Part shown: positions 25,414-42,930 of the stretch, piece after piece | How the letters are laid out: every line of letters starts with the position of its first letter | Numbering within the stretch: position 1 is the stretch's first letter | DNA from: an uncultured delta proteobacterium | GTDB lineage: Bacteria; Desulfobacterota; Desulfarculia; JACQYL01; CAWGVV01 | NCBI GenBank assembly: GCA_963821845.1 | Contig: CAWGFI010000006.1 | Location: 65,478-129,477, forward strand | Reading direction: 5' to 3' | Length of the DNA stretch: 64,000 nt | The notes under the pieces: model-generated | What the model saw: only the letters and a program-made list of their open reading frames with translations | What the model was told of the DNA's origin: nothing | Database searches by the model: none | Program-made: the position numbers and the translations under genes

Positions 25414-26712
25414 TTATTCTTCCTTCCATTCCGAGAAACCCAGCACGAATCTCTGGTCGGCGAAATAAACCAGGTCATCGATCTTATGGTCCCGAATGAA
25501 TTCGGTCAGATTGAATTCCCTTCCGGTCTCCTTTTCGAAGTTGCGTGGATCGATAAAAAAGGCGTGATGATAATGTCGGCTTATCAACGGTGTTATACAG
25601 TTGTCGTACGAGTCCCCTATCACCACGATGTTTCTCCGGCTCACATCGGGATTCATATATTCCAGCAGCCCGTAGTTCTTGCCGAAATAGTTATAGTGGT
25701 CCACAAACGCTCCCGAAAGCGTGGAATCACCTATTCTGCTTTTATAGTTTTCCTTACAAACATAGCCGCTATTCTGTCCGCTCGGAACTCCGTTTACGTA
25801 TATCTGAAAATCAGGCAGATCGAAGTCCGCGTCCTCTATTTCATCATAGATGGTTTCAAGTTTTCCCGCGGCGCGAGCGTCCGATCCGCGAAATATCAGA
25901 CCCGGCAATTTGAACCATTTCTTGGGAACAAGAACCGGCGTTTCTTCCATGTCCTTTAAGTAAAGTTTGTCTATTAGCTGTCTATACGCCGTATAGCTGC
26001 CTTTCATGCATAAATGATGATCAGTTTTGTAATAGCATTCCAGAGCTTCTCTCGGTGAAAGTTCATTCCCGGGAAAGAAGTATTGAATTCGATCGTCAAG
26101 AAGGGAGAAGAATTCGCGGACATATTTATCGCCGGTGAAGGGGGCGGTATCTATCCCCAACTCTCGATAATACATCACCGCCCAGTCCGCTTTGCTCAAG
26201 ACGGGAACCAGGACCAGGCGGACGGAGGGGTTTTCTCTTATGAAGCGGTTGTAGCGCTCGGCGCTTACCCGTAAAAGTTCTCGTTTTTGTTGCGAAAGCG
26301 TCTCCGGAGTTCGTATGAGCGCTTTCTCGTTTTTGGCTAAAAGGACGTCGCCCCCGATCGGCAGCAGAGGAGTCCAATCACTGGGCAAAACATCGAGAAA
26401 CTCCTTGTCGAACCAACGACTTACCCATTTATACGTAAAGATGAAGGGAGTGGGGAAATGATCGCTGGTCGCGTTCTCTAAATGCTGTTGAAAAAAACCC
26501 GTGAAAAATCGCTTTTCATAGGGCCCCGCATACCACTCGCGGCTCCGGCCCATTATTTCCCAGAAGTCCGAAGCGCCGATCTCCTCGCAGATACCTTTAA
26601 TTCCCAGGAAGCTGTAGACATTCCAGGCCATTCCGGAAAAAAGAAGCCCAATGACAAGAAAAGAGTATAAAATGTTCTTCTTGTGATCAGAGTGTGCGCC
26701 TTTTACACGCAT
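25414..26712 (-). CDS. AlgJ/AlgX-like (SGNH-like) O-acetyltransferase partner protein
   Basis: ORF track 25414..26763. Likely start MRVKGAHSDHKK at 26712 with one N-terminal TM segment. YYKTDHHL motif and its position directly upstream of the MBOAT gene. Confidence 0.55.
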   Translation of the reverse strand: MRVKGAHSDHKKNILYSFLVIGLLFSGMAWNVYSFLGIKGICEEIGASDFWEIMGRSREWYAGPYEKRFFTGFFQQHLENATSDHFPTPFIFTYKWVSRWFDKEFLDVLPSDWTPLLPIGGDVLLAKNEKALIRTPETLSQQKRELLRVSAERYNRFIRENPSVRLVLVPVLSKADWAVMYYRELGIDTAPFTGDKYVREFFSLLDDRIQYFFPGNELSPREALECYYKTDHHLCMKGSYTAYRQLIDKLYLKDMEETPVLVPKKWFKLPGLIFRGSDARAAGKLETIYDEIEDADFDLPDFQIYVNGVPSGQNSGYVCKENYKSRIGDSTLSGAFVDHYNYFGKNYGLLEYMNPDVSRRNIVVIGDSYDNCITPLISRHYHHAFFIDPRNFEKETGREFNLTEFIRDHKIDDLVYFADQRFVLGFSEWKEE

Positions 26713-26933
26713 GATTAGAAATTCCTGGAAATTATCTGAAAAAAGATGATAAAATACATTCAATTGTCAATTATACTAGCTGTAAAAGAAATAAACCATC
26801 TTAAAAATGCGTCAGCCATGAAACGACTCGATCTTAAGACTTATTATGGCAAAAAAAACTTTATTCGCGCGTCCGACGCTTGACGCCGTCGAACCGCTCT
26901 TCCATATAATTATGTTCAGGGCCATAAAAATCC

Positions 26934-26962
26934 TTGACTTCTCTTGGCTCTTTATATTATAG
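26934..26962 (+). promoter_or_regulatory. candidate sigma70-type promoter for the trp/aro leader region
   Basis: TTGACT at 26934-26939 followed by the A/T-rich TTTATATTATAG (26951-26962). Candidate -10 hexamers TATTAT/TTATAG sit at 15-17 nt spacing. Confidence 0.4.
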
Positions 26963-26969
26963 ATCAGCA

Positions 26970-27071
26970 ATGGCGCTCAAAATTCCAACACACCCCATGT
27001 TTGACCCTCACCAAAGAACGTCCGCCGCGTTGCGGAACGGCTACTATTTTTGCTGGTGGCGCTCGTCTTGA
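26970..27071 (+). CDS. leader peptide 1 (33 aa), trpL-like: MALKIPTHPMFDPHQRTSAALRNGYYFCWWRSS*
   Basis: Own translation; too short for the ORF track. Tandem TGG TGG at 27054-27059 is preceded by TAC TAT TTT. The stop lies 3 codons after WW, as in E. coli TrpL (...GWWRTS). A terminator lies ~50 nt downstream. No clear RBS. Confidence 0.55.
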   Translation: MALKIPTHPMFDPHQRTSAALRNGYYFCWWRSS

Positions 27072-27123
27072 CGGTGGGGGCTCATCCGGTTTACGCCAGT
27101 TAGAAATAGTTGAGATGATACTG

Positions 27124-27160
27124 CCCGCCCTCGAAAGAAGGCGGGTTTTTTTTTGCTTTT
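27124..27160 (+). terminator. intrinsic terminator / attenuator 1
   Basis: CCCGCCCTC-GAAA-GAAGGCGGG hairpin (27124-27145, GNRA-type loop) followed by T9GCT6. Confidence 0.7.
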
Positions 27161-27176
27161 TTGAGGAGTAACAACC

Positions 27177-27260
27177 ATGAACACGACCGTACGCCGCTTT
27201 TTTTGTTTTTGGTATTGGCGCTTCTTCTTTCGTCAACCGGCGGTGAGGTCTGTGCTATGA
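27177..27260 (+). CDS. leader peptide 2 (27 aa), aromatic-rich: MNTTVRRFFCFWYWRFFFRQPAVRSVL*
   Basis: Own translation. GGAG RBS at 27165-27168, 8 nt before the ATG. Nine aromatic codons out of eleven at 27198-27230 (6 Phe, 2 Trp, 1 Tyr). Confidence 0.7.
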   Translation: MNTTVRRFFCFWYWRFFFRQPAVRSVL

Positions 27261-27291
27261 ATATCTGAATACTCTTTGAAGCAGCGCATAC

Positions 27292-27330
27292 AGCCCACCG
27301 CCGGACCCGGCGATGGGCTTTTTTCATTTT
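27292..27330 (+). terminator. intrinsic terminator / attenuator 2 immediately upstream of trpE
   Basis: GCCCACCGCCGG (27293-27304) pairs with CCGGCGATGGGC (27307-27318) with one mismatch, followed by TTTTTTCATTTTT. CCGGCGGTG inside leader 2 (27237-27245) is the exact complement of the terminator 5' arm segment CACCGCCGG (27296-27304), giving a candidate antiterminator. Confidence 0.7.
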
Positions 27331-27341
27331 TGGAGGAGCGT

Positions 27342-28727
27342 ATGAACCTGAGTGTACAAAGCGTGGAAAGGCTGGCCGATATCGAAACACCTGTTTCGGC
27401 CTATCTCAAACTGTGTAAAGGCAAACCGGACTCCTTTCTCCTGGAGAGCGTGGAGACCAAGTACGTGACCGGCCGCTATTCCATCGTGGCCTATGACCCG
27501 CTTTATTCCATGGAGCTGGGGCCGGAAAGCGCCGTAATACGGAACAACGGGTCCGAGGAGTCGGCCCCGGCGGCCGAATTCTTCAACCTCATCAAATCCG
27601 GCCTGGACAAACTCAAGCTGGAAACGCCCTCGCCCCTGCCGGCGGTGGGGTCGCTGATGGGGTATGTGGGCTACGACGCCGTCCGCCTGATCGAGCGTCT
27701 TCCCAACCCCCGTCCCGGCGTCCTGCCCGTCGCCCGCCTCGTTTTCCCGTCCCGTTTCGTCCTTTTCGATCATGTGCGCCGAGTCATGATTTTGCTGGCC
27801 ATCGGTAACAATGAAACCGCCTGCGCCGAAAAAATCGACGACATGACCGCCGCCCTGCGCGGACCCCGGAGTTTTCCCGCCACGGGCCGCAAGCTGGAAA
27901 TCACTCCGCCTCCGCCAGAGCGCTACCACGAGGCGGTGCGCAAGGCCAAACAGTACATCCGGGAAGGCGACATCTTCCAGGTAGTGCTGTCCGACGTGTT
28001 TGAAGGCGAAACCGACATGAGCCCCTTTGAAGCCTATCGCCGACTGCGGGTGCGCAGCCCATCGCCCTACATGTTTTACGCCGATTTCGGCGCCTATCAA
28101 CTGGTGGGCGCTTCTCCGGAAACCCTGGTCAAGGTGAAGGACAAAATCGTCACCATCATGCCTATCGCGGGCACGCGGGGCCGTTCGGAAGATACCAAGC
28201 GGGACCGGGAACTGGAAGAAGAGCTGATCACGTCGGACAAGGAGTTCGCCGAACACCTCATGCTGGTGGATCTGGCCCGAAACGACGTGGGCCGGGTGGC
28301 GCGCTACGGCACGGTCAACGTCGATCCCTATCGCACCGTGGAGCGCTACAGCCACGTCATGCACATCGTGTGTCAGGTCCAGGGGCGGCTGCGGGATGAG
28401 ATGGACGCGGTGGACGCCTTCATGGCCGGTTTTCCGGCGGGCACGGTTTCCGGAGCGCCCAAAGTCCGCGCCATGGAGATAATCGACGAACTGGAATGTT
28501 CCAACCGCGGCCCGTACGCGGGCGCGGTAGGCTATTTCGGGCCGGGAAACGTCACGGACACCTGCATCGCCATACGAGTCATCCTGTTCGAACAGGACCG
28601 CTTCACCATACGGGTGGGCGCGGGGATCGTCGCCGATTCGGAGCCCAAATTCGAATACAAGGAAATCCAGAACAAGGCCGCCCAGAGTATCTACGCGCTG
28701 CAGGCGGCCGCCAGGGGGGAGTCATGA
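27342..28727 (+). CDS. trpE: anthranilate synthase component I
   Basis: ORF track 27276..28727. ATG at 27342 follows GGAGGA. Intact 461 aa with LLESVE, GDIFQVVLS and the PYAGAVGYF..IAIR motifs. Confidence 0.9.
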   Translation: MNLSVQSVERLADIETPVSAYLKLCKGKPDSFLLESVETKYVTGRYSIVAYDPLYSMELGPESAVIRNNGSEESAPAAEFFNLIKSGLDKLKLETPSPLPAVGSLMGYVGYDAVRLIERLPNPRPGVLPVARLVFPSRFVLFDHVRRVMILLAIGNNETACAEKIDDMTAALRGPRSFPATGRKLEITPPPPERYHEAVRKAKQYIREGDIFQVVLSDVFEGETDMSPFEAYRRLRVRSPSPYMFYADFGAYQLVGASPETLVKVKDKIVTIMPIAGTRGRSEDTKRDRELEEELITSDKEFAEHLMLVDLARNDVGRVARYGTVNVDPYRTVERYSHVMHIVCQVQGRLRDEMDAVDAFMAGFPAGTVSGAPKVRAMEIIDELECSNRGPYAGAVGYFGPGNVTDTCIAIRVILFEQDRFTIRVGAGIVADSEPKFEYKEIQNKAAQSIYALQAAARGES

Positions 28728-29793
28728 TACAGGAAGCCATCGCCAAGGTCGTGGAAGGAACCGACTTGTCCGAACTGGAAATGATGGCAGGTCATGGATT
28801 TCATCACCGAAGGCCGGGCCACGCCCGCCCAGATCGGCGCCCTGCTCATCGGCTTGCGCATGAAGGGCGAAACCGTGGACGAAATCGCCGGGGCGGCCCG
28901 AGTCATGCGCAATAAAAGTGTTCGCATTCCCGTGGGAGAATCCAACGTTTCCATGGATCGCGACGAAATAAACATGGACCGGGAAACCATCGTCGACACC
29001 TGCGGGACCGGCGGGGACGGGACCAGGACCTTCAACGTCTCCACCACCACCGCCTTTGTGGCCGCCGGCGCGGGTCTGAAAGTGGCCAAGCACGGCAACC
29101 GGTCGGTGTCCAGCCAGTGCGGCAGCGCGGACGTGATCGAGGCCCTGGGAATCCGAATCGATCTGAAGCCTGAACAGGTGGGCGCGTGCATCGACGAGGT
29201 GGGCATCGGCTTTTTGTACGCGCCGCTTCTGCACGGGGCCATGCGCCACGTCATCGGGCCGCGCAAGGAAATCGGTCTGCGCACGATTTTCAACATCCTG
29301 GGGCCGCTGACCAACCCGGCCGGGCGCCACGGTGCAGGTGCTGGGCGTCTACCGGGAGGATCTCACCGACGTCATGGCCCGGACGCTTCAACGGCTGGGC
29401 TGCCGCAGCGCGTTCGTGGTTCACGGTGAGGGGAGCTACGACGAAATCAGCGTGACCGGCCCCACCAGGATAACCCGGCTTTGCGGCGATGACGTAACCT
29501 CGCTGTCGGTGACGCCCGAAGAACTGGGGCTGCGGAGGGCCAAGCCCGAAGAGATCCTGGGCGGAGACGCCGCAGAAAACGCGGCCATTGTCAGGTCCGT
29601 CCTGTCGGGCCGCCATGACGCGCGCCGGGACATGGTGCTCATGAACGCCGCCGCCGCGCTGGTGGCCGCCGGAAAGGCCGACGGCCTGCCGCAGGGCGTG
29701 GAAATGGCGGCGGAAGCCATCGACAGCGGTCGAGCCGCTCAAAAACTGAACGATCTGGCGGAACTGAGCGTCCGCTTCAGTCAGGCCGCCTAG
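28724..29793 (+). pseudogene. trpD: anthranilate phosphoribosyltransferase, interrupted by 2 frame shifts as assembled
   Basis: Three collinear frame segments: [22 protein letters not shown] | [19 protein letters not shown]...[15 protein letters not shown]...[10 protein letters not shown] | [11 protein letters not shown]...MNAAAAL. Shifts (+1 each) are near 28790 and 29331. The ATG overlaps the trpE stop (ATGA). Confidence 0.8.
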
Positions 29794-29819
29794 CGGCTCA
29801 CCGGAAGAGAAGCGGATTC

Positions 29820-30610
29820 ATGAGCATACTGGACAAAATCATAGAAACCAAAAAGCAGGAAATCGCGGCGCTGAAGGCCACAAGCGATCTCGCCGACATG
29901 AGCCGTCAGGCCTTGAAGCGGCCTCTGGGCCGCGGCCTGGAAGCGGCTTTGCGAAACAACGGCCGAACGCCGGTCATCGCCGAAATCAAACGGTCCTCGC
30001 CTTCGGCGGGCGTGTTGAATGGACAGGTGAACGTACGAATCCCTGGCCACAGCCTACCAGGGCGCGGGCGCGGCGGCGGTGTCGGCGCTTACCGACCGGA
30101 CCTTATTTCAAGGGAAGCCTGGAAGACGCCCGCAAGGCTCGGGCCGTCCTGAATATTCCTGTTCTGCGCAAGGATTTCATCATCGACCCCATCCAGCTCT
30201 ATGAAACCAAGCTGGCGGGGTTGGACGCGGTCCTGCTCATCGTGGCCGCCCTGGAGCCGCCGCTTCTTCGGGACTTGTACGCCCGGGCGCGCGATCTCGG
30301 CCTTTCCGTGCTGGTGGAGGTTCACCGGGAAGAGGAGCTGGACGCCGCTCTGGCGCTGAATCCGTCCATCATCGGCGTCAATAACCGCAATCTCTCCGAC
30401 ATGACCGTATCGCTTGAAACCTGCGTAAGGCTGCGGCCTCTGATTCCCGCCAACGTTTTGGTGGTGGGCGAAAGCGGCGTGAACACGCCCAATGACGTTT
30501 CCCGCTTGCTGAGCGCCGGGATAAACGGCTTTCTGGTGGGATCGGCGCTCATGAAATCAAACGATCCGGGCGGTCTGCTCAAATCGCTGGTCGAGGCAAG
30601 GAGCGCGTAG
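29820..30610 (+). pseudogene. trpC: indole-3-glycerol phosphate synthase, interrupted by 2 frame shifts as assembled
   Basis: Segments MSILDKIIETKKQEI...VIAEIKRSSPSAGVL.. | YESLATAYQGAGAAAVSALTDRTLFQG | SLEDARKARAVLNIPVLRKDFIIDPIQ...VGVNNRNL. Shifts are near 30033 and 30115. Confidence 0.8.
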
Positions 30611-31176
30611 CCATGGTGCGGGTCAAGATCTGCGGAATCACCAACATCGAAGACGCCCAAGCCGCGGTGAACGCCGGAGCCGACGCTTTGGGATTTGTTT
30701 TCGCCCCCAGCCCCCGGCGGATAACCCCGGAACAGGCGCGGGAAATCATCAAGGGATTGCCTCCGATGGTTTCCACGGTGGGCGTATTCGTGAACGAAGA
30801 ACCAAGCCGGATCGTGGAAATCCGGAACTACTGCGGGCTGAACGCCGTTCAGCTTCACGGCGACGAGACCGGAAAGCGTCGTGGACGCGCTCGAAGGCGC
30901 GGTCATCAAGGCGGCGCGGGTGCGGCCGTCATCGATCATATCCGAAAACGACTATCCGACGGCCACCTTGTTGCTGGACACCTATCATCCGGTGAATGCG
31001 GGTGGGACCGGCGAAACCTTTGACTGGCAGCTGGCCGTCCGCGTAGCCGCCCGCCGCAGGATCATCCTGGCTGGCGGCCTCGACCCGGACAACGTGGCCC
31101 AGGCCGTGACGGCCGTCAGACCGTATCGCGGTGGACGTATCCAGCGGCGTGGAGAATCAACCTGGGAGAAAAGATC

Positions 31177-32406
<1,230 letters not shown>

Positions 32407-32410
<4 letters not shown>

Positions 32411-33230
32411 AATCAGCCATTCAGCAAGCATTCGCAGCGCGGCCGCTCAGAGGCGGAGCGCCTTTATGCCCTTTTTCACCGGCGGATATCCGGACGCCCA
32501 AACGTGTTTGGATTTTCTAAGGCACTGGCCGAGGCCGGTGCGGACGTGATCGAAGTCGGGCTGCCGTTTTCCGATCCGTTGGCGGACGGCCCGATCATCC
32601 AGAAATCCAGTCACGCGCCCTGGACATCGGGCATGACCCCGCCCAAGGTTTTGGAGCTGATCGCCGAGGCCCGTAAGAAGGCCGACGTGCCGGTGGTGCT
32701 CATGACCTATGTACAATCCCATGTTCCGCCTGGGGTGGAGACATTTTGCCGCCGAGGCGCGGGAAGCGGGCGTGTCCGGCGTCATCGTTCCGGATCTGCC
32801 TCTGGAAGAGGCCGATGAATGGTGGAAGAGGCGGCCTGCGGCACGGCATGGACACCATCTTCATGATTGCGCCCACCACGCCGGCGGAGCGGCTTGCAAA
32901 GAGGTCATCCGGTCCAGCCGGGGGTTTGTGTACGCCGTGGCCCGGACCGGCGTCACCGGTTCGGAAACGTCGGTTTCCGAGGAATTGTCCACGTACCGTT
33001 TCGGCCATCAAAGCCGATCGCCGATCTGCCGGTGGCCGTGGGTTTCGGAGTATCCAGGCCGGAAGACGCCCGGCTCCTGGCCGGATCTGGCCGACGGAGT
33101 GATCGTGGGCAGTGCGCTTATTGAAAACGGTTATGGAACAGGACGGCCAGGAAGCGCGAGTCGCTGCGGCCGCCCGTCTGGCCGCGAGACCTCGCCGGAT
33201 CGAATCTGGCCAAGGAGGACAATCCAATGA
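32407..33230 (+). pseudogene. trpA: tryptophan synthase alpha chain, at least 10 frame disruptions as assembled
   Basis: ATG at 32407. Segments MKSAIQQAF | [16 protein letters not shown] | [28 protein letters not shown] | YNPMFRLGWRHFAAEAREAGVSGVIVPDLPLEEADE | HGMDTIFMIAPTTPAERLA | RGFVYAVARTGVTGSETS | VSAIKA | DLPVAVGFGVSRPEDARLLAGS | ADGVIVGSALI. The stop at 33228-33230 overlaps the trpG ATG (ATGA). Confidence 0.75.
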
Positions 33231-33840
33231 TTCTCATCATCGATAATTACGATTCCTTTACGTTCAACCTGGCTCACGCGTTGGGCGAGCTAGGCCGGGA
33301 AATCACGGTCAAACGCAATGATGCGGTCTCGCCCCCGGAGATCGACATGGCTGAACCCCGAGGCCATCGTCATTTCGCCGGGTCCGGGACGGCCGGACGA
33401 TTCGGGCGTGAGCCTCGAAGTCATCGAGAAGTTTGCCGGCAAAATCCCCATCCTGGGGGTCTGCCTGGGGCATCAGTGCATTGGCCGAGGTGTTCGGAGG
33501 CCAGGTGGTTCGGGCCAAGGAGCCGGTTCATGGGAAGACCTCGGAGGTCTTTCACGACGGCCGGACCATGTATCGGGGCGTCCGAAATCCGTTCAAGGCC
33601 ACGCGGTACCATTCCCTGATGGCGCCCGAGGACGACTTGCCGGCCAGTCTGGAAGTATCGGCCTGGACTTTGGACGGTGTGGTCATGGGCGTGCGGGCCG
33701 TGGGCCTGCCTGTGGAAGGGGTCCAGTTTCACCCCGAATCCATCGCCACCCCGCTGGGTAAATCCATCCTCCGGAATTTCCTGGAGCACTACGTCGTGCG
33801 GCCGACAGGCGGCCTGAGGGAAGGAAGCGCGTCATGGTAA
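33227..33840 (+). pseudogene. trpG: anthranilate synthase component II (glutamine amidotransferase), 2 frame shifts as assembled
   Basis: AAGGAGGA RBS. Segments [23 protein letters not shown]...EIDM | [21 protein letters not shown]...[12 protein letters not shown] | [19 protein letters not shown]...YHSL...GVQFHPESI. Shifts are near 33350 and 33483. Confidence 0.8.
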
Positions 33841-34879
33841 TTTTGATGACCGAAAAGTGCCGGAAAAAAGAGGTGGCGGATGTCCTGTCCGCCATCAAAG
33901 CACGAGGGTTCGAGCCGCGCATGATCACGTCCCAGACCGCGCGTGGTGCTCGGGCGTGGTGGAAGAAATGAAGCCGCCGGCAGATCGAAGAACTGACCGA
34001 GGCCCTGTCCAAGCTGCCGGAGGTGGAGGGCATCGAACTGTTCGGCCTCCTGCAAACTGGCGGGCCGGACGTTCCGTGTGGAAAACACGCTGATCCCGTG
34101 CAGGCGCACGAACGCTCGGGGACGGCGGCATTACGGATCATGGCCGGACCGTGCGCCGTGGAATCCCGGGAGGCCATGCATTAGAGATCGCCCGATTCAT
34201 CAAGGCGGCAGGAGCGGATATGCTGCGCGGCGGCGCGTTCAAGCCGCGGACGTCGCCGTATTCCTTCCGGGGCCTGGGCCAGGAAGGGCTGGAGCATCTG
34301 GCCGAGGCCCGCAGGAAACCGGGCTGCCCATCATCACCGAGGTGCTGACCCCGGAGGAATCGCCCTGGTGGCCGGATACGCGGACATTCTCCAGATCGGG
34401 ACCCGCAACATGCAGAATTTCGCGCTTCTGGAGGCGGCGGGCGAAACTGGACAAGCCGGTAATTCTCAAAAGGGGATGATGGCCACGGTGAAGGAACTGC
34501 TGCTGTCGCGCGGAATACATCCTGGCGCAAGGGCAATCCGCAGGTGATTCTCTGCGAGCGGGGCATCCGCACGTTTGAAAAGGAAACGCGAAATACACTG
34601 GACATATCGGCGGTGCCTCTGCTAAAGCAACTGTCCCACCTGCCGGTGGTGGTGGACCCCAGCCACGCCGTGGGAAAGCGCGGAACTGGTGCCCGCCATG
34701 GCTCTCGCGGCCGTGGCGGCCGGCGCGGACGGTCTGATGATCGAAGTGCATCCCGACCCGGACGAGGCCCTTTCCGACGGCCGGCAAAGTCTGACCTTCG
34801 ACGCCTTTGCGCGCTCATGCGTAATATCGAAAGCGTGGCGGCGACGGTAAAGAGCATCTACAAAGGAAATGATCGATGA
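33834..34879 (+). pseudogene. aroF: DAHP synthase (type I-beta) with N-terminal ferredoxin-like regulatory domain, about 15 frame disruptions as assembled
   Basis: Segments MVILMTEKCRKKEVADVLSAIKARGFEP | [16 protein letters not shown] | [14 protein letters not shown] | [45 protein letters not shown] | [15 protein letters not shown] | [25 protein letters not shown] | [11 protein letters not shown] | [43 protein letters not shown] | [37 protein letters not shown]. Domain order is as in the Thermotoga-type enzyme. Confidence 0.75.
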
Positions 34880-36945: not shown

Positions 36946-38507
36946 GTGGAAACATTTACCTGACCGGATTCATGGGCGCCGGCAAAAGCACGGTGGGGCG
37001 GCTTTTGGCCGCCATCTTGCGACGTCCGTTCGTGGACATGGACGACATGCTAGAAAAGCAGTTTAAAAGACCCATCTCCGACGTATTTAAAGACTTGGGA
37101 GAAGAGGCCTTCCGGCAAAAAGAGAGCGCCCTGCTGGAGGAACTGGCCCGCCGCGACCGTCTGGTGGTGGCCACCGGGGGAGGCGCGCCCGAGCGCGAAG
37201 AAAACCTGAAGCTCATGTACGCTTCCGGGGCCATTGTCCATCTCCGCGCCGATCTGGACACGCTCATGGACAGATTGGACGAATCCGAACGGGCCACACG
37301 TCCCCTGTGGCGGGACCGGGAGACGTTACAAAAGCTTTTTGACCGGCGGCAAGCTCTATACGCGCGGAACGATTGCGCCGTTGAAAACAATGGCCGTCCC
37401 CCCGAGGAAGTGGCTCTGGAAATCGTTCGGGCTTTGTATCCCGATCAACAATTTACCGTGCGGATGAACGGCGCCGACCGGCCGGTGGTGGCCACTTGGC
37501 GGGCGGAAGAGGTCTTGCCGGAAATGGCCGGATCGAGGCGGGCGGCGATCCTGACGGACCGCACCGTGGCCCGGTTGCGGCTGGGAGCGCTGACCGCCGG
37601 ACTCGTCGATCCGGTGGTCATAACCGTCGCCGCCGGGGAACGGTCCAAAACCCTGAACGGAGCGCGCGGGGTCATCGACAAGCTGCTGGAAAACCACTTT
37701 GAACGGAGCGACCTGCTCGTGGCCGTGGGAGGCGGCGTGGTGACCGACCTGGGCGGGTTTGTCGCCTCCATCTACAAACGCGGCATGCGGTATCTGCCGG
37801 TATCGACTTCCCTGGTCGGCTGCGTGGACGCCGCCATTGGCGGCAAGACGGCGGTCAATGTTTCCGCGGCCAAAAACATGATCGGCGCGTTCAAGGACCC
37901 CGTCGGAGTCATTCTGGACATGCGCGCTTTGGGCACATTGAAACGCGGCCAGATCCGGGAAGGCCTGGTGGAAGCCTACAAAACCGGCCTGGTGTACGAG
38001 CCCGCCTTGGCGGACCTGGTGGAAACGCATATTCGGGCGCTGCTCGGCCAGGACGCGCCGCTGTTGGGCGAACTCGCTTCCCTGTCCGCGCGGGCCAAGG
38101 CCCGCATCGTGAGCCAGGATTTTCTGGACACCGGCCTGCGGCGCATTCTCAATTTCGGCCACACCTACGGCCACGCGGTGGAGACCTATAACGCATTCAA
38201 AATTTCCCACGGCCGGGGCGTGGCGGCGGGCATGCTGGTCGCTGTCCTGCTGTCCGAACGGCGCGGCCTGATACCGCCGTCCATGGGCGCGAAGATCCAG
38301 GAAACCCTCAAGCTCATCGATCCCCGCCCCACGCCGCTCCCCCCGGTGGAAGACGCCTGGGGCGCCATGCTGCACGACAAAAAGATGGTCGACGGCAAGC
38401 TGATCTACGTGCTGCTGAACGGCCGGGGTTCGGCCGTGTGCGTGGACGATGTGTCCAAAAAAGAACTGGCGGACGTCCTGTCCACCCTGGAGGCCGTCGA
38501 TGGGTAG
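36942..38507 (+). CDS. aroB: bifunctional shikimate kinase / 3-dehydroquinate synthase (AroK-AroB fusion)
   Basis: ORF track 36753..38507. ATG at 36942 overlaps the aroE stop (ATGA). N-terminal [15 protein letters not shown] (shikimate kinase P-loop). C-terminal [16 protein letters not shown]...[11 protein letters not shown]...[11 protein letters not shown] (dehydroquinate synthase). Intact 521 aa. Confidence 0.85.
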
Positions 38508-39563
38508 CGTTTTTGGACGGTATTTCAGAATAGCCACCTTCGGGGAGTCGCACGGCGCGGCGGTCGGCGTGATCGTGGAAGGCGTTCCGGCCGAATATCG
38601 AGCTTGATCGGGATTTCATCCAGAGCGAACTCGACCGCAGACGCCCCGGCGTATCCCAATACGTGACCGCGCGGCGCGAAACCGACGAGGTGGAGATTCT
38701 CTCCGGGGTCGTGGACGGTAAAACCCTGGGAACGCCCATCTCGCTCCTGGTACGCAACAAGGACGTCCGGTCCCAGGATTACAAAGCCATCGGGGAACTC
38801 TTCCGGCCCGGCCACGCCGATTACGCCTATTTTAAAAAATACGGCGTTCCGCCGCAGCCCGGAGGCGGAAGATCGTCAGGACGCGAAACCGTGGGCCGGG
38901 TGGCCGCGAGGCGCGGTAGCCAAGGCGTTTTTGAAGCCGTTCGCCATCGAGACGCAGGCCTACACGCTGGCCATCGGCGGAATTGAAGCGGAAAAGGTTG
39001 ACCTCGATTACGTCGAACACAACCCCCTGAGGTTCGCCGATCCCGACCGTTTCGATCAGGCGGCCGGTCTGGTGGACGCGGCGCGGGAAGACGGCGACTC
39101 CATCGGCGGCGTCATCGAAGTCGTCGTCACCGGGGTTCCCGCCGGCCTGGGCGATCCGGTCTTCGACAAGCTCGACGCGCTGCTGGGCGCGGCCATGTTT
39201 TCCATCGGCGCGGTGAAAGGCGTGGAGTTCGGCGCCGGGTTCCGGCTGGCCGGAATGCGCGGCTCCCGGGCCAACGATCCCCTGTCGCCGGAAGGGTTCC
39301 TCGGGAACAACGCGGGCGGGGTTCTGGGCGGTATTTCCAACGGCGAACCCATTGTCATGCGACTGGCGGTCAAACCGACCTCATCCATCGCCAAACCCCA
39401 AAACACGATCGACCTGACCGGCCGGACGCGGACCATCCAGGTGCAAGGGCGCCATGATCCCTGCCTGTGCCCGCGTGTGTGCCCGGTCGCCGAAGCCATG
39501 GCGGCCTTGGTTATAGCCGACGCGTTTCTGGAACAACGCGCCGCCACGGGAAGCAATCCATGA
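38502..39563 (+). pseudogene. aroC: chorismate synthase, 2 frame shifts in the first 410 nt as assembled
   Basis: [31 protein letters not shown] | [19 protein letters not shown]...[27 protein letters not shown] | [10 protein letters not shown]... then ORF 38931..39563 (GGVLGGISNGEPI...RHDPC). Shifts are near 38595 and 38905. Confidence 0.8.
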
Positions 39564-40443: not shown

Positions 40444-40492
40444 ATTTCAACATCTATTTGGATAATTTTTCAGCGGCCCGGACAAAAAAACC

Positions 40493-40521
40493 TTGACAAG
40501 CTCGGCGACTTGCTGTTTACT
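40493..40521 (+). promoter_or_regulatory. candidate sigma70-type promoter for leader 3 / second DAHP synthase-pheA-tyrA
   Basis: TTGACA at 40493-40498, a 17-nt spacer ending in TGT, then TTTACT at 40516-40521 (extended -10-like). Confidence 0.45.
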
Positions 40522-40575
40522 GCATCTATAAGATCGACAAAAATCAGGATTACACTTATTCAGAGACAGACGGGT

Positions 40576-40656
40576 ATGAAACTTTTTAGCAACGGTTTTT
40601 ATTATTATTTTTATTATTTTACCGCCTACCCGTGCGCTCTGGAGGATGCCGTCTAA
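40576..40656 (+). CDS. leader peptide 3 (26 aa), Phe/Tyr-rich: MKLFSNGFYYYFYYFTAYPCALEDAV*
   Basis: Own translation; too short for the ORF track. Eight consecutive aromatic codons (TTT TAT TAT TAT TTT TAT TAT TTT) at 40597-40620, followed by terminator hairpins. Confidence 0.65.
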   Translation: MKLFSNGFYYYFYYFTAYPCALEDAV

Positions 40657-40682
40657 GACTGACCAAAAATAGAAACGAATCC

Positions 40683-40724
40683 GGGCCATGGGTAGAAAGA
40701 GTAAACCCATGGCCCTTCTTTTTT
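40683..40724 (+). terminator. intrinsic terminator / attenuator 3a
   Basis: GGGCCATGGGT (40683-40693) pairs perfectly with ACCCATGGCCC (40705-40715), followed by TTCTTTTTT. TACCCGTG inside leader 3 (40627-40634) can pair with CATGGGTA (40687-40694), giving a candidate antiterminator. Confidence 0.7.
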
Positions 40725-40760
40725 AAAGGCCGTGGGGTAAACCTCACGGCCTTTTCGTTT
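40725..40760 (+). terminator. second hairpin with U-tract (attenuator 3b)
   Basis: AAAGGCCGTG (40725-40734) pairs with CACGGCCTTT (40745-40754), followed by TCGTTTT. It lies directly upstream of the GGAGG RBS of the DAHP synthase gene. Confidence 0.55.
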
Positions 40761-40781
40761 TCAACCAGGAGGAAAAAGAAA

Positions 40782-41677
40782 ATGGACATGAATACGGAAT
40801 CAGTCCCCATCCCAGCCATGGGAACGAACGCGAGCCCCGCCATCACACAGCCTAAGCTCCCGCCCTACAAGCTGGCCAGCAGGGAAACCCGCTTCGCTCC
40901 CACCATCGTTCGAGGTCGGTTCGGTTCAAATTGGAGGCCCGTCCTTTTCGGTCATCGCCGGTCCCTGTTCCGTTGAAAGCGAAGAACAGCTTTTGACGAC
41001 CGCGCAATGCGTGAAAGAGGCGGGCGCTTGCATTCTGCGCGGCGGGGCGTTCAAACCCAGAAGCAGCCCGTACAGCTTCCAGGGGCTGGAGGAAGAAGGG
41101 TTGAAACTCCTGCAAAAGGCGCGGGAACTTACCGATTTGCCCATCGTAACCGAAGTCATGGACTCCGATGACATCGCGCTGGTGGAGTCATACGCCGACA
41201 TCTTGCAGGTGGGTTCGCGCAACAGCCAGAATTTTTCGCTCCTGAAGAAACTGGGCAAGGTCAAGAAACCGGTCCTGCTCAAACGCGGCTTGATGACCAC
41301 CATCAAGGAATTCCTCATGTCCGCCGAATACATCCTCGCTTCCGGCAACGATCAGGTGATCATGTGCGAACGCGGCATCAGAACCTTTGAGACCGCGACC
41401 CGCAACACGCTGGACCTCAGCGCCATCCCCGTTCTCAAGGAACGGACCCACTTGCCGGTTATCGTCGATCCCAGCCACGCCGTAGGCGATTACCGGTATG
41501 TCGGCGCCCCTGGCCAAGGCCGCTCTGGCGGTCGGCGCGGACGGGTTGATGATCGAAGTGCATCATTGCCCGGAAAACGCGCTCTGCGATGGCGATCAGT
41601 CGCTAACGCCCGCGATGTTCCAGACCATGATGGATGAACTGCGCGCCATGGCCACATTTATCGGACGGCCCATGTAG
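40782..41677 (+). pseudogene. aroF: DAHP synthase (type I-beta, second paralog), 2 frame shifts as assembled
   Basis: GGAGG RBS at 40768. Segments [14 protein letters not shown]...RFAPTIV | [28 protein letters not shown].. then ORF 40993 ([18 protein letters not shown]...[25 protein letters not shown]...[14 protein letters not shown]) | [34 protein letters not shown]...FIGRPM*. Shifts (+1 each) are near 40910 and 41500. Confidence 0.8.
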
Positions 41678-41742
41678 ATCGAAACCATTGCTGACGTTTT
41701 TCTTCTTTGGACAGTCATACACAGATTTTGAATGAGACGGTT

Positions 41743-42930
41743 ATGGAACAGCAGGCCATTGAATCATTGCGAAACATGATCAATTCCGTGGACGAGGAAA
41801 TCATTCGGCTACTCGGAAAACGATCCGCGTACGCCACTGAAATCGGTCGACAAAAACAAAAATCCGGATTGCCCGTTTTTGACGGGGGGCGTGAACGAAG
41901 TTTGCTGGAACGGGTCAGGAACCTGGACGCCGGGTGTCTCCAGCCTTCGGCGGTGGAAACCATTTTCACCGAAATCATATCCGCTTGCCGGGCGGTTCAG
42001 CAAAACCTGAAAATTTCCTATCTGGGGCCGGAAGCCACCTTTACCCATCTGGCCGCGCAGCGGTATTTCGGACGGTCCACGGATTACAAGCCGTGCGGGG
42101 CCATAGCGGACGTGTTTAAGGATGTGGAGAGCGGGCAGTGCGATTTCGGCGTCGCGCCGGTGGAAAATTCCAACGAAGGCGCCGTGACAGCCACTTTGGA
42201 CCGCCTCGCCCTGAGCGACGCGCGAATCACCGGAGAAATATTCTGTCCCATTTCTCACGCGCTGATGTCCAAGGAAGCATCTTTGGACCGAATCGAACGT
42301 ATCTATTCACACCCCCAGGCGTTGAGCCAGTGTCTGAACTGGCTGGCTGACAGACTGCCCGGACGCGCTCTGCTGCAAGCGGACAGCACGGCGGCGGCGG
42401 CGAAGATCGCCGGCGGAGAAGCCGGGGCGGCGGCCGTGGGAAGCGCCATGCTGGCCGAACGGTACGGACTTAATACCCTGGAACAGGACATTCAGGACCG
42501 GCGGCCCAACATCACCCGTTTTTTCATCCTCGGACGAGGAGAAGTCCAAAGAACCGGCAATGATAAAACGTCCATCGTGTTCGGGGCGGCTCATGAGCCC
42601 GGCTCGCTATTCAAGGCGCTCGCGCCGTTCGCCCGCAATGGGATCAACCTGACCAGAATCGAATCCCGGCCGTCCAAATCCGCTCCCTGGGAATATCTGT
42701 TCTTTCTGGATCTCGAAGGTCATGAAAGCGACGACCATCTGCGGGAAGCGCTTGACGAGGCGGGGCGCGAAACCATGCATCTGAAGCTGTTGGGTTCCTA
42801 CCCCAAGGGCGACCTTGGGAAACAGGATACGCACGAAGCCCGCCAATCGCTGGAACTTTGGAACGCATTGGGACAAATCAACCCTGGGATTCAAGCGGTC
42901 GTCAACTCCGGCCCAGGCGTCCGCTCATAA
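41743..42930 (+). CDS. pheA: bifunctional chorismate mutase / prephenate dehydratase (P-protein) with ACT domain
   Basis: ORF track 41707..42930. ATG at 41743. CM region LRNMINSVDEEIIRLLGKRS. PDT region ISYLGPEATFTHLAA...APVENSNEGAV. ACT region TSIVF...PGSLFKAL..F...GINLTRIESRP. Intact; the C-terminal tail is longer than I expect. Confidence 0.85.
   Translation: MEQQAIESLRNMINSVDEEIIRLLGKRSAYATEIGRQKQKSGLPVFDGGRERSLLERVRNLDAGCLQPSAVETIFTEIISACRAVQQNLKISYLGPEATFTHLAAQRYFGRSTDYKPCGAIADVFKDVESGQCDFGVAPVENSNEGAVTATLDRLALSDARITGEIFCPISHALMSKEASLDRIERIYSHPQALSQCLNWLADRLPGRALLQADSTAAAAKIAGGEAGAAAVGSAMLAERYGLNTLEQDIQDRRPNITRFFILGRGEVQRTGNDKTSIVFGAAHEPGSLFKALAPFARNGINLTRIESRPSKSAPWEYLFFLDLEGHESDDHLREALDEAGRETMHLKLLGSYPKGDLGKQDTHEARQSLELWNALGQINPGIQAVVNSGPGVRS

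Follow-up and report, generated by a model that had tools for sequence, protein, structure and literature searches.

Two candidate leader-peptide attenuators in series upstream of a trp-aro operon in an uncultured Desulfobacterota bacterium

Textbooks use leader-peptide attenuation to show how a ribosome can serve as a metabolite sensor, and almost every description of it has one leader and one terminator. The 400 bases before trpE in a contig from an uncultured delta proteobacterium (phylum Desulfobacterota; GenBank assembly GCA_963821845.1, contig CAWGFI010000006.1, positions 65,478 to 129,477) appear to hold two of each, raising the question of whether this operon is controlled by two attenuators in series and, if so, what each of them senses. 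We refer to the whole 64,000-nt stretch as the window and number positions from its first base. A preliminary description of this DNA had proposed a Trp-type attenuator followed by one of mixed aromatic type, and that arrangement is supported by the anatomy of the leader, by three related loci that are also doubled, by covariation and by folding. Judging from sequence and folding models, we put the probability that the two units are working, classical ribosome-mediated attenuators at about 0.8. Whether Phe/Tyr sufficiency is a distinct input to the second gate is a separate matter, on which our confidence falls a little short of even.

Anatomy of the trpE leader

Each unit has a short open reading frame (ORF) with clustered regulatory codons, an intrinsic terminator before the first gene and a predicted antiterminator that would exclude that terminator (Table 1). 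Two short ORFs, each with its own alternative structures, are also what defines a tandem attenuator in mgtCBR, and the anatomy here agrees with this. Translation reproduces both leaders as first described, i.e., leader 1 with its NGYYFCWWRSS-stop ending and leader 2 behind a ribosome-binding site with nine aromatic residues in 11 codons (FFCFWYWRFFF). The GC-rich hairpin with a GAAA loop and T9 tract after leader 1 is present, as is the second terminator ahead of the trpE ribosome-binding site. In unit 2, the stretches 27237-27245 (CCGGCGGTG) and 27296-27304 (CACCGCCGG) are exactly complementary, as had been noticed. One coordinate changes: trpE starts at 27342, not 27343. Both hairpins were missed by a simple terminator scan and were found by our own scan, which tolerates one mismatch.

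The T9 run and the second leader's ATG are only 22 nt apart, and no promoter-like site was seen between them by reading, so one transcript probably carries both units. The upstream neighbour (25414-26763) has the opposite orientation, and the promoter-like site therefore probably serves the trpE leader.

How much of this could arise by chance differs between the two units. Across all six frames of the window, only two 11-codon stretches hold at least seven aromatic residues: leader 2, and a leader-like ORF at 40597 before a DAHP synthase-pheA pair. The pattern of WW followed by a stop within five codons, however, occurs 18 times in the window, so leader 1 is not significant by itself. Its support therefore comes from conservation in relatives and from a sub-threshold Rfam match: Trp_leader (RF00513) aligns to unit 1 at 27048-27154 with 21.8 bits (E=0.2), below the gathering score of 41. 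Unit 2 has no RF00513 match, so by score neither unit belongs to that family. No T-box, riboswitch or other known RNA leader among the curated family models matched in 26000-28000 at E-values up to 10, a search that did not specifically cover TRAP-type (G/U)AG repeats. A model built from the 19 family units described below (R1) found no further copy in the window.

Table 1. Features of the leader region (window coordinates)
Feature	Position	Strand	Description	Basis
Promoter-like site	26934..26962	+	-35 TTGACT 26934-26939; AT-rich -10 TATTATAG 26955-26962	read from sequence
Leader ORF 1	26970..27071	+	MALKIPTHPMFDPHQRTSAALRNGYYFCWWRSS, stop; 33 codons; no Shine-Dalgarno, probably leaderless	translation
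Candidate region 1	27005..27012	+	CCCTCACC; partner of the GGTGGGGG strand when no ribosome is present	minimum-free-energy folds; inferred
Regulatory codons, leader 1	27042..27059	+	TAC TAT TTT TGC TGG TGG (Y Y F C W W)	translation
Antiterminator strand 1	27067..27080	+	TTGACGGTGGGGG; partner is CCCGCC-CTCGA of the terminator 1 5' arm	folding and family covariation
Intrinsic terminator 1	27123..27154	+	GCCCGCC/GGCGGG stem, GAAA loop (27123-27146); T9 27146-27154	
Shine-Dalgarno of leader ORF 2	27163..27168	+	GAGGAG, 8 nt 5' of ATG	read from sequence
Leader ORF 2	27177..27260	+	MNTTVRRFFCFWYWRFFFRQPAVRSVL, stop; 27 codons	translation
Aromatic regulatory codons, leader 2	27198..27230	+	F F C F W Y W R F F F	translation; codon-run scan
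Antiterminator strand 2	27237..27248	+	CCGGCGGTGAGG, within ORF 2 codons 21-24; complements 27294-27304 with one bulged A	
Intrinsic terminator 2	27292..27330	+	hairpin 27292-27319, 12-pair stem AGCCCACCGCCG/CGGCGATGGGCT, loop GACC, C.A mismatch 27298/27313; tail TTTTTCATTTTT	
trpE with Shine-Dalgarno	27332..28727	+	GGAGGAG 27332-27338; ATG 27342; stop 28725-28727	PF04715, PF00425

Conservation in related loci

We compared 15 distinct loci, mostly from uncultured Desulfobacterota, with TrpE proteins 51-89% identical. Genome and metagenome scans with the window's TrpE gave few close relatives (best match in the genome scan 56% identity), and the closer ones were obtained by protein search together with the upstream DNA of their contigs. 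Those homologues that bear names would assign the window to the Thermodesulfobacteriota (Desulfarculaceae and Magnetomoraceae among them). All 15 loci carry an attenuator unit before trpE, consisting of an ORF with Trp codons, a GGTGGG strand, a spacer of 45-65 nt, a terminator hairpin (CCCACCG...CGGTGGG in the family) and a T run, the last lying 22-38 nt 5' of trpE. The small ORFs, aromatic codon runs and covarying stems that the preliminary description had suggested looking for in relatives are thus conserved. Acidobacteriota TrpE matches, at 43% identity, come without such a unit. In the relatives the Trp run is often preceded by Tyr or Phe codons (e.g., YYFGWWWW, YYYGWWW, SYFWWW, RFYFWW), and Tyr-Tyr-Phe before WW is conserved across the family; calling leader 1 Trp-type is therefore right as to its WW but too narrow, as it is not purely a Trp leader.

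The closest relative with intact genes, L010 (TrpE 89% identical), has both ORFs with the same length, start and stop, and it keeps both hairpins. Identity to the window is very uneven along the leader. It stands at 97% in the regulatory end of leader 1 (27033-27071), 92% in terminator 2, 83% in the leader 2 tail with its antiterminator strand and 82% in antiterminator strand 1 with its spacer, falling to 48% between terminator 1 and leader 2 and to 45% in the spacer before terminator 2; the whole leader is 74% identical and the trpE-trpF DNA 80%. The region 1 motif ACCCTCAC is invariant inside a stretch that is otherwise 70% identical. Leader 2 of L010 reads VNMTLDRFFYFGYWWRFFPLPAVRSVP and ends at the same stop. 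It differs from the window's by a 1-nt deletion offset by a 1-nt insertion four bases on, the other difference being 3 nt, so the reading frame is preserved. Terminator 1 of L010 retains its hairpin with a different inner stem and loop. The C.A mismatch of terminator 2 (27298/27313; 3' arm CGGCGATGGG) recurs in the first terminator of L013 (2780-2805), while L010 has a G-C pair at this position and a compensating U-A is found in L015 (second terminator); the mismatch would weaken terminator 2 relative to the antiterminator.

The 19 units of these loci were aligned from 12 nt 5' of the GGTGGG core through the T run. In this set of related sequences, from which the structure was itself derived, 96.8% of terminator cells are paired and 5 of its 10 pairs have changed on both sides. 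In the antiterminator, where the GGTGGG strand can form 12 pairs with the terminator 5' arm, 84.6% of cells are paired and five pairs have changed on both sides, with compensatory examples such as TTCGA/TCGAA, TTCTA/TGGAA, ATCCG/TGGAT, CCGG/CCGG and TCGG/CCGA. Each helix surpasses all 500 shuffles in percent paired and in covariation score, and sliding the partner by 1-3 columns lowers pairing to 29-61%. RNAalifold independently predicts the terminator.

Spacing is also conserved. Counted from the first base of the last Trp codon, the GGTGGG core begins at 14-17 nt in 15 of the 19 units (16 nt in leader 1 of the window), which places it just ahead of a ribosome whose A site holds that codon. 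Most ORFs of the family run on through the antiterminator strand and stop 16 nt after the start of the core.

Eleven of the loci have one unit and four have two in series. In the window, leader 1 (..NGYYFCWWRSS-stop) is followed by a leader 2 with RRFFCFWYWRFFF, and in L010 ..NGYYFCWWRST-stop is followed by DRFFYFGYWWRFF. L013 (TrpE 72% identical) has NGYYFCWWWC.. and then GFYFGWWWWN.., and L015 (69%) has CWWWC and then SWWWF, with about 300 nt between its units. The motif NGYYFCWW is common to the window, L010 and L013. Both leaders are Trp-rich in L013 and L015, while the window and L010 have a second leader with five or six Phe codons at the family's Trp-codon position. The mixed aromatic character claimed for leader 2 is therefore present, with the refinement that its Phe-rich state is, on this comparison of sequences, a derived one in the window/L010 lineage. 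Our main argument for a shift of the regulatory position is one of distance: the last Trp codon of leader 2 lies 26 nt (window) or 23 nt (L010) from the core, and the last Phe codon lies at 14 nt, so the Phe codons appear to have taken over the place that Trp codons occupy elsewhere. Clustering by spacer identity, which might have pointed to the ancestral copy, brought out only the orthology between the window and L010.

Some variation among the relatives deserves separate mention. Trp runs are present in 18 of the 19 units. The remaining one, the single attenuator of L032 (1336-1488), reads SYFYFSWRRNN where its close relative L031 reads SFSWWWWQN, so it has lost the run and retains one Trp codon; this may be another re-tuning towards Phe/Tyr, or decay. 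In L031 and L032 the antiterminator strand is GATGGG in place of GGTGGG, giving an A.C mismatch. The stretch between the L015 units (2589-2947) contains a G/C homopolymer hairpin with a T run, CACCCCCCCTTTGGCAAAGGGGGGGGTTTTT, at 2711-2738, and similar GGGGG/CCCCC-rich repeats lie upstream of the L029 leader; the hairpin may be a mobile repeat or an extra terminator. Finally, L013 has a c-di-GMP-I riboswitch (RF01051, 72 bits) at 1164-1248 on the minus strand, upstream of the trp leader region and opposite to it, which adjoins a subtilase/PKD-domain gene and is unrelated to the trp leader.

The two leaders seem to start translation in different ways. No Shine-Dalgarno site precedes the leader 1 ATG at 26970. 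The distance from the first T of TTGAC to the first in-frame leader ATG is 36 nt in the window (26934-26972) and 36-39 nt in 14 of the 15 loci, counting the first or sole leader of each (e.g., L013 2629-2670 and L014 2737-2777; also L015, L018, L022, L026 and L028-L033), and in these 14 the ATG lies 8-10 nt 3' of a -10-like hexamer. The exception is L001, with 59 nt and an AGGA before its ATG. Promoter geometry would have transcription begin on the leader 1 AUG or no more than about 2 nt from it, and because the TTGAC-to-ATG distance is so constant, the mRNA that leader 1 is translated from appears to be leaderless. This option does not exist for second leaders, which have Shine-Dalgarno sites: GAGGAG in the window, GGATGGAG in L010 and GGGAGGA in L013.

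Operation of the gates and rival readings

To follow the switch we folded nascent RNA ending with the 5' arm of each terminator, with the ribosome modelled as a 28-nt mask. The folds under ribosome constraints that the preliminary description had proposed show the expected switch. The antiterminator pairings are GGTGGG with CCCGCC in unit 1 and CCGGCGGTGAGG with CCCACCGCCGG in unit 2, the latter including CCGGCGGUG/CACCGCCGG. With the ribosome at F27, W29 or W30 of leader 1, the RNA 3' of it folds into UUGA.GGUGGG/CCCGCC.UCGA at -17.7 to -18.3 kcal/mol; with the ribosome at the stop codon, the antiterminator strand is masked and the terminator forms; and with no ribosome, GGUGGGGG pairs with CCCUCACC at 27005-27012, leaving the terminator free. 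In unit 2, all 11 antiterminator pairs form with the A site at codons 1-17, eight at codon 18, none at codons 19-27 and five at the stop. Two other treatments were discarded. In a whole-leader fold, the unit 1 strand paired with region 1 'through' the stalled ribosome, which is physically unlikely, so only the RNA 3' of the ribosome was used. Equilibrium folding of the full hairpins was rejected as a test, attenuation being kinetic.

These observations suggest the following sequence of events, on one transcript starting at about 26968-26970. At gate 1, a ribosome would begin leader 1 at the 5'-terminal AUG. With ample charged tRNA-Trp it would reach the UGA at 27069 and cover GGUGGGGG (27073-27080), so that terminator 1 could form and RNA polymerase would halt at the T9 run. 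If it stalled at the Trp codons, or at the Phe codon before them, the strand would stay free to pair with CCCGCC and the polymerase would continue. With no ribosome at all, the strand would be held by region 1 and the default would be termination. Only read-through transcripts would carry the Shine-Dalgarno site and ORF of leader 2. At gate 2, a ribosome at codons 19-27 would cover CCGGCGGUGAGG and let terminator 2 form, and one stalled anywhere in FFCFWYWRFF would leave the strand free to sequester the terminator 2 5' arm. Read-through into trpE would be the product of the two gates, with gate 1 weighted towards Trp and gate 2, in this lineage, towards Phe, Trp and Tyr contributing. We infer from this scheme that both ORFs are translated, the first from a leaderless start, that the aromatic amino acids named are those sensed, and that the output multiplies a Trp signal by a general aromatic one. 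Initiation may add a further layer: in the nascent fold of unit 2, the leader 2 Shine-Dalgarno (GAGGAGU, 27163-27169) pairs with the Phe-codon stretch GCUUCUUC at 27220-27227, so the Phe codons might also gate initiation of leader 2.

The operon that the leader precedes is relevant to what the gates might sense. Its order is trpE-D-C-F-B-A-G-aroF-aroA-aroE-aroKB-aroC-aroQ, to about 39997. L010 has trpE-trpD-trpC-trpF-trpB-trpA-trpG, a DAHP synthase gene, aroA, aroE, an aroK/aroB fusion and aroC in the same order, to which the window adds aroQ. TrpE is a 461-aa protein with the expected Pfam domains. Gene content thus bears out the earlier statement that the operon joins Trp-specific and common shikimate genes, and a second gate responsive to Phe and Trp makes metabolic sense for such an operon. 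Several genes are frameshifted in the window: trpD, trpC, trpF, trpB, trpA, trpG and the DAHP synthase gene (28724-34873), aroC (about 38500-39560) and a second DAHP synthase gene (40783-41637), while trpE, aroA, aroE, aroKB and pheA are unbroken, as are most of the window's remaining genes. Aligned to L010, the frameshifts from trpD to trpF are single-base insertions. They could be the product of a locally poor long-read consensus (i.e., an assembly fault) or of real pathway decay. Exact homopolymer lengths in this assembly are uncertain because there are so many 1-nt insertions just downstream of the leader; the two leader ORFs are nonetheless unbroken and align collinearly with their L010 counterparts.

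Further along the same gene cluster, at 40490-40790, is a third candidate leader-peptide attenuator. It has TTGACA at 40492 and an ORF at 40577-40657 (MKLFSNGFYYYFYYFTAYPCALEDAV, stop) with eight Phe/Tyr codons in a run (FYYYFYYF). Hairpins with T runs follow at 40684-40725 and 40729-40766, and then AGGAGG and the ATG at 40783 that opens the frameshifted second DAHP synthase gene, after which comes pheA (chorismate mutase-prephenate dehydratase, 41707-42930). This candidate has no Rfam match.

Several points count against two working attenuators with divided sensing. At equilibrium the terminators win at every ribosome position in gate 1 and at all but four in gate 2, and the switch would therefore work only kinetically, as in E. 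coli. A ribosome at the leader 2 stop leaves 5 of 11 antiterminator pairs possible, so termination at gate 2 would, in the model, need a ribosome within codons 19-27 in time, or the 3' arm to act by strand displacement. The folds show no region 1 for gate 2, which if untranslated would therefore default to read-through. Translation of leader 1, with its missing Shine-Dalgarno, depends on the leaderless start drawn from promoter geometry. The Phe codons of leader 2 occur in two closely related genomes and could reflect T-rich drift, and the whole sample is 15 loci. Lastly, the frameshifts from trpD to aroF, if real, would mean that the operon is decaying here.

A more specific history, to which we give somewhat less than even odds, is that a Trp attenuator was duplicated and its sensing then divided: the leaderless gate 1 kept Trp, the Shine-Dalgarno-dependent gate 2 was recoded to Phe, and the supraoperon computes the product of Trp and Phe/Tyr sufficiency, beside a third leader (40577-40657) with Phe/Tyr codons only that would control the DAHP synthase-pheA unit. 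A rival reading, which we consider unlikely but worth weighing, is that both gates sense essentially Trp. The doubling would then lower basal read-through and sharpen the response, an effect proposed for T-boxes and riboswitches in tandem, and leader 2 would have its Phe and Tyr codons incidentally (T-rich sequence, drift or RNA structure). The Trp-rich leaders of L013 (WWW/WWWW) and L015 (WWW/WWW) fit this, as do the two Trp codons that leader 2 retains in the window and L010, and the CUUCUUC Phe codons, which pair with the leader 2 Shine-Dalgarno in the minimum-free-energy fold, could serve structure. The last of these Trp codons, however, sits 26 nt (window) or 23 nt (L010) from the core, with Phe at the canonical 14 nt, and five or six Phe codons have stayed in frame in both genomes despite the indels. 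Aromatic runs this dense occur only twice in the window, each time before aromatic-pathway genes, and the operon includes the common pathway.

The two-gate scheme also has to be set against readings in which one or both units do something else or nothing. Unit 1 could be mainly a small-RNA and/or peptide gene acting in trans (a transcript to 27154 and a 33-residue peptide), with unit 2 as the working attenuator. Reports on Sinorhizobium meliloti rnTrpL and peTrpL describe an attenuator-derived RNA and peptide that act in trans (PMC6614838, PMC7298713), and the unit 1 spacer (27081-27122) is unusually conserved with L010 (82%). We nonetheless think this improbable: nothing found here suggests a target, conservation is poor over the N-terminal two-thirds of the peptide (70% DNA identity, many residue changes), and unit 1 has every part of a cis-acting attenuator. 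A role in trans would be an addition to that function and not a replacement. It is more improbable still, to the point of being hard to credit, that one or both units are relics or chance combinations of ordinary hairpins with untranslated ORFs. The missing Shine-Dalgarno of leader 1, the 18 WW-stop patterns and the frameshifted genes would suit such an origin, but relatives with as little as 51% TrpE identity conserve the ORFs, stops, hairpins and complementary strands, with covariation, the promoter and ATG are spaced constantly, and the L010 operon is intact.

If divided sensing is right, the two copies would form a natural two-input serial attenuator for a branched pathway. The attenuator unit has been duplicated in tandem in at least three lineages, and in one of them the regulatory codons of the second copy appear to have moved from Trp to Phe, which suggests that a simple RNA switch can gain a new input through a few codon changes and that serial gates could allow combinatorial control of an operon serving three end products. 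Apart from this, the comparison defines an attenuator family in uncultured Desulfobacterota with a GGTGGG antiterminator strand, a CCCACCG terminator and an apparently leaderless first ORF. Current RNA-family libraries miss it at threshold, none of the leaders of the 14 related loci reaching the gathering score of any Rfam family, and its small leader ORFs are of the kind that gene callers overlook.

Comparison with known systems

The mechanism proposed here is classical ribosome-mediated attenuation, doubled and diversified, and not a new one. The searchable literature yielded no account of trp leader-peptide attenuators in tandem, nor of any trp attenuation in Desulfobacterota; it does not extend to older comparative work such as Vitreschak 2004, so an earlier prediction is possible, and Rodionov 2004 did not treat tryptophan.

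The nearest single-unit parallel is E. coli trpL (RF00513), whose leader ends in WWRTS-stop where leader 1 ends in WWRSS-stop, with adjacent Trp codons near the end of the ORF in both. The two systems share an antiterminator strand directly after the regulatory codons and a GC-rich terminator with a T run, followed by trpE. Unit 1 also resembles E. coli in the position of its stop, which comes just ahead of the antiterminator strand, and in a candidate region 1 farther upstream that would make termination the default. Unlike the E. coli trp operon, however, the window has two serial units, a 33-codon and seemingly leaderless first leader, Tyr/Phe codons before Trp and an operon that adds the common aromatic pathway.

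Leaders that respond to more than one amino acid are well known, e.g., E. coli thr (Thr and Ile codons) and ilvGMEDA and ilvBN (Leu, Val and Ile codons), and starvation for any of the end products of such a leader can relieve termination. In the thr and ilv leaders the codons are mixed in one leader with one terminator, whereas here they are spread over two of each. To our knowledge, a mixed Phe/Tyr/Trp leader is not among the classical multivalent examples.

Serial sensors before biosynthetic operons are known in other forms: tandem T-box leaders precede the trp operons of some Firmicutes. Like these and like tandem riboswitches, the leader studied here would place two terminator-bearing sensors in series before a biosynthetic operon, making the output the product of two read-through decisions. 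T-boxes and riboswitches, however, bind uncharged tRNA or a metabolite directly, and the sensor here would be a translating ribosome. The metE leader of B. clausii is an example with tandem riboswitches (PMC3641672).

Leaderless leader peptides have a precedent in Deinococcus deserti, including the leader of trpEGD, where translation starts at, or 1 nt from, the mapped transcription start and there is no Shine-Dalgarno (PMC4007540). That organism belongs to another phylum, has a single attenuator and has mapped starts, whereas the start proposed here comes from promoter geometry.

The closest tandem parallel is Salmonella mgtCBR. Lee & Groisman 2012 wrote that biosynthetic genes have 'normally a single attenuator' and called the mgtCBR tandem a 'singular example' (PMC3641672). 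Its leader contains two short translated ORFs, mgtM and mgtP, each controlling an alternative RNA structure in response to a different signal (PMC3641672), and this is the arrangement proposed for the window. The mgtCBR operon responds to ATP and proline and is not biosynthetic, and according to the authors' comparison with metE its leader does not have two intrinsic terminator sites (PMC3641672). Unlike mgtCBR, the two units before this trpE are paralogous copies of one attenuator family, each with an intrinsic terminator of its own.

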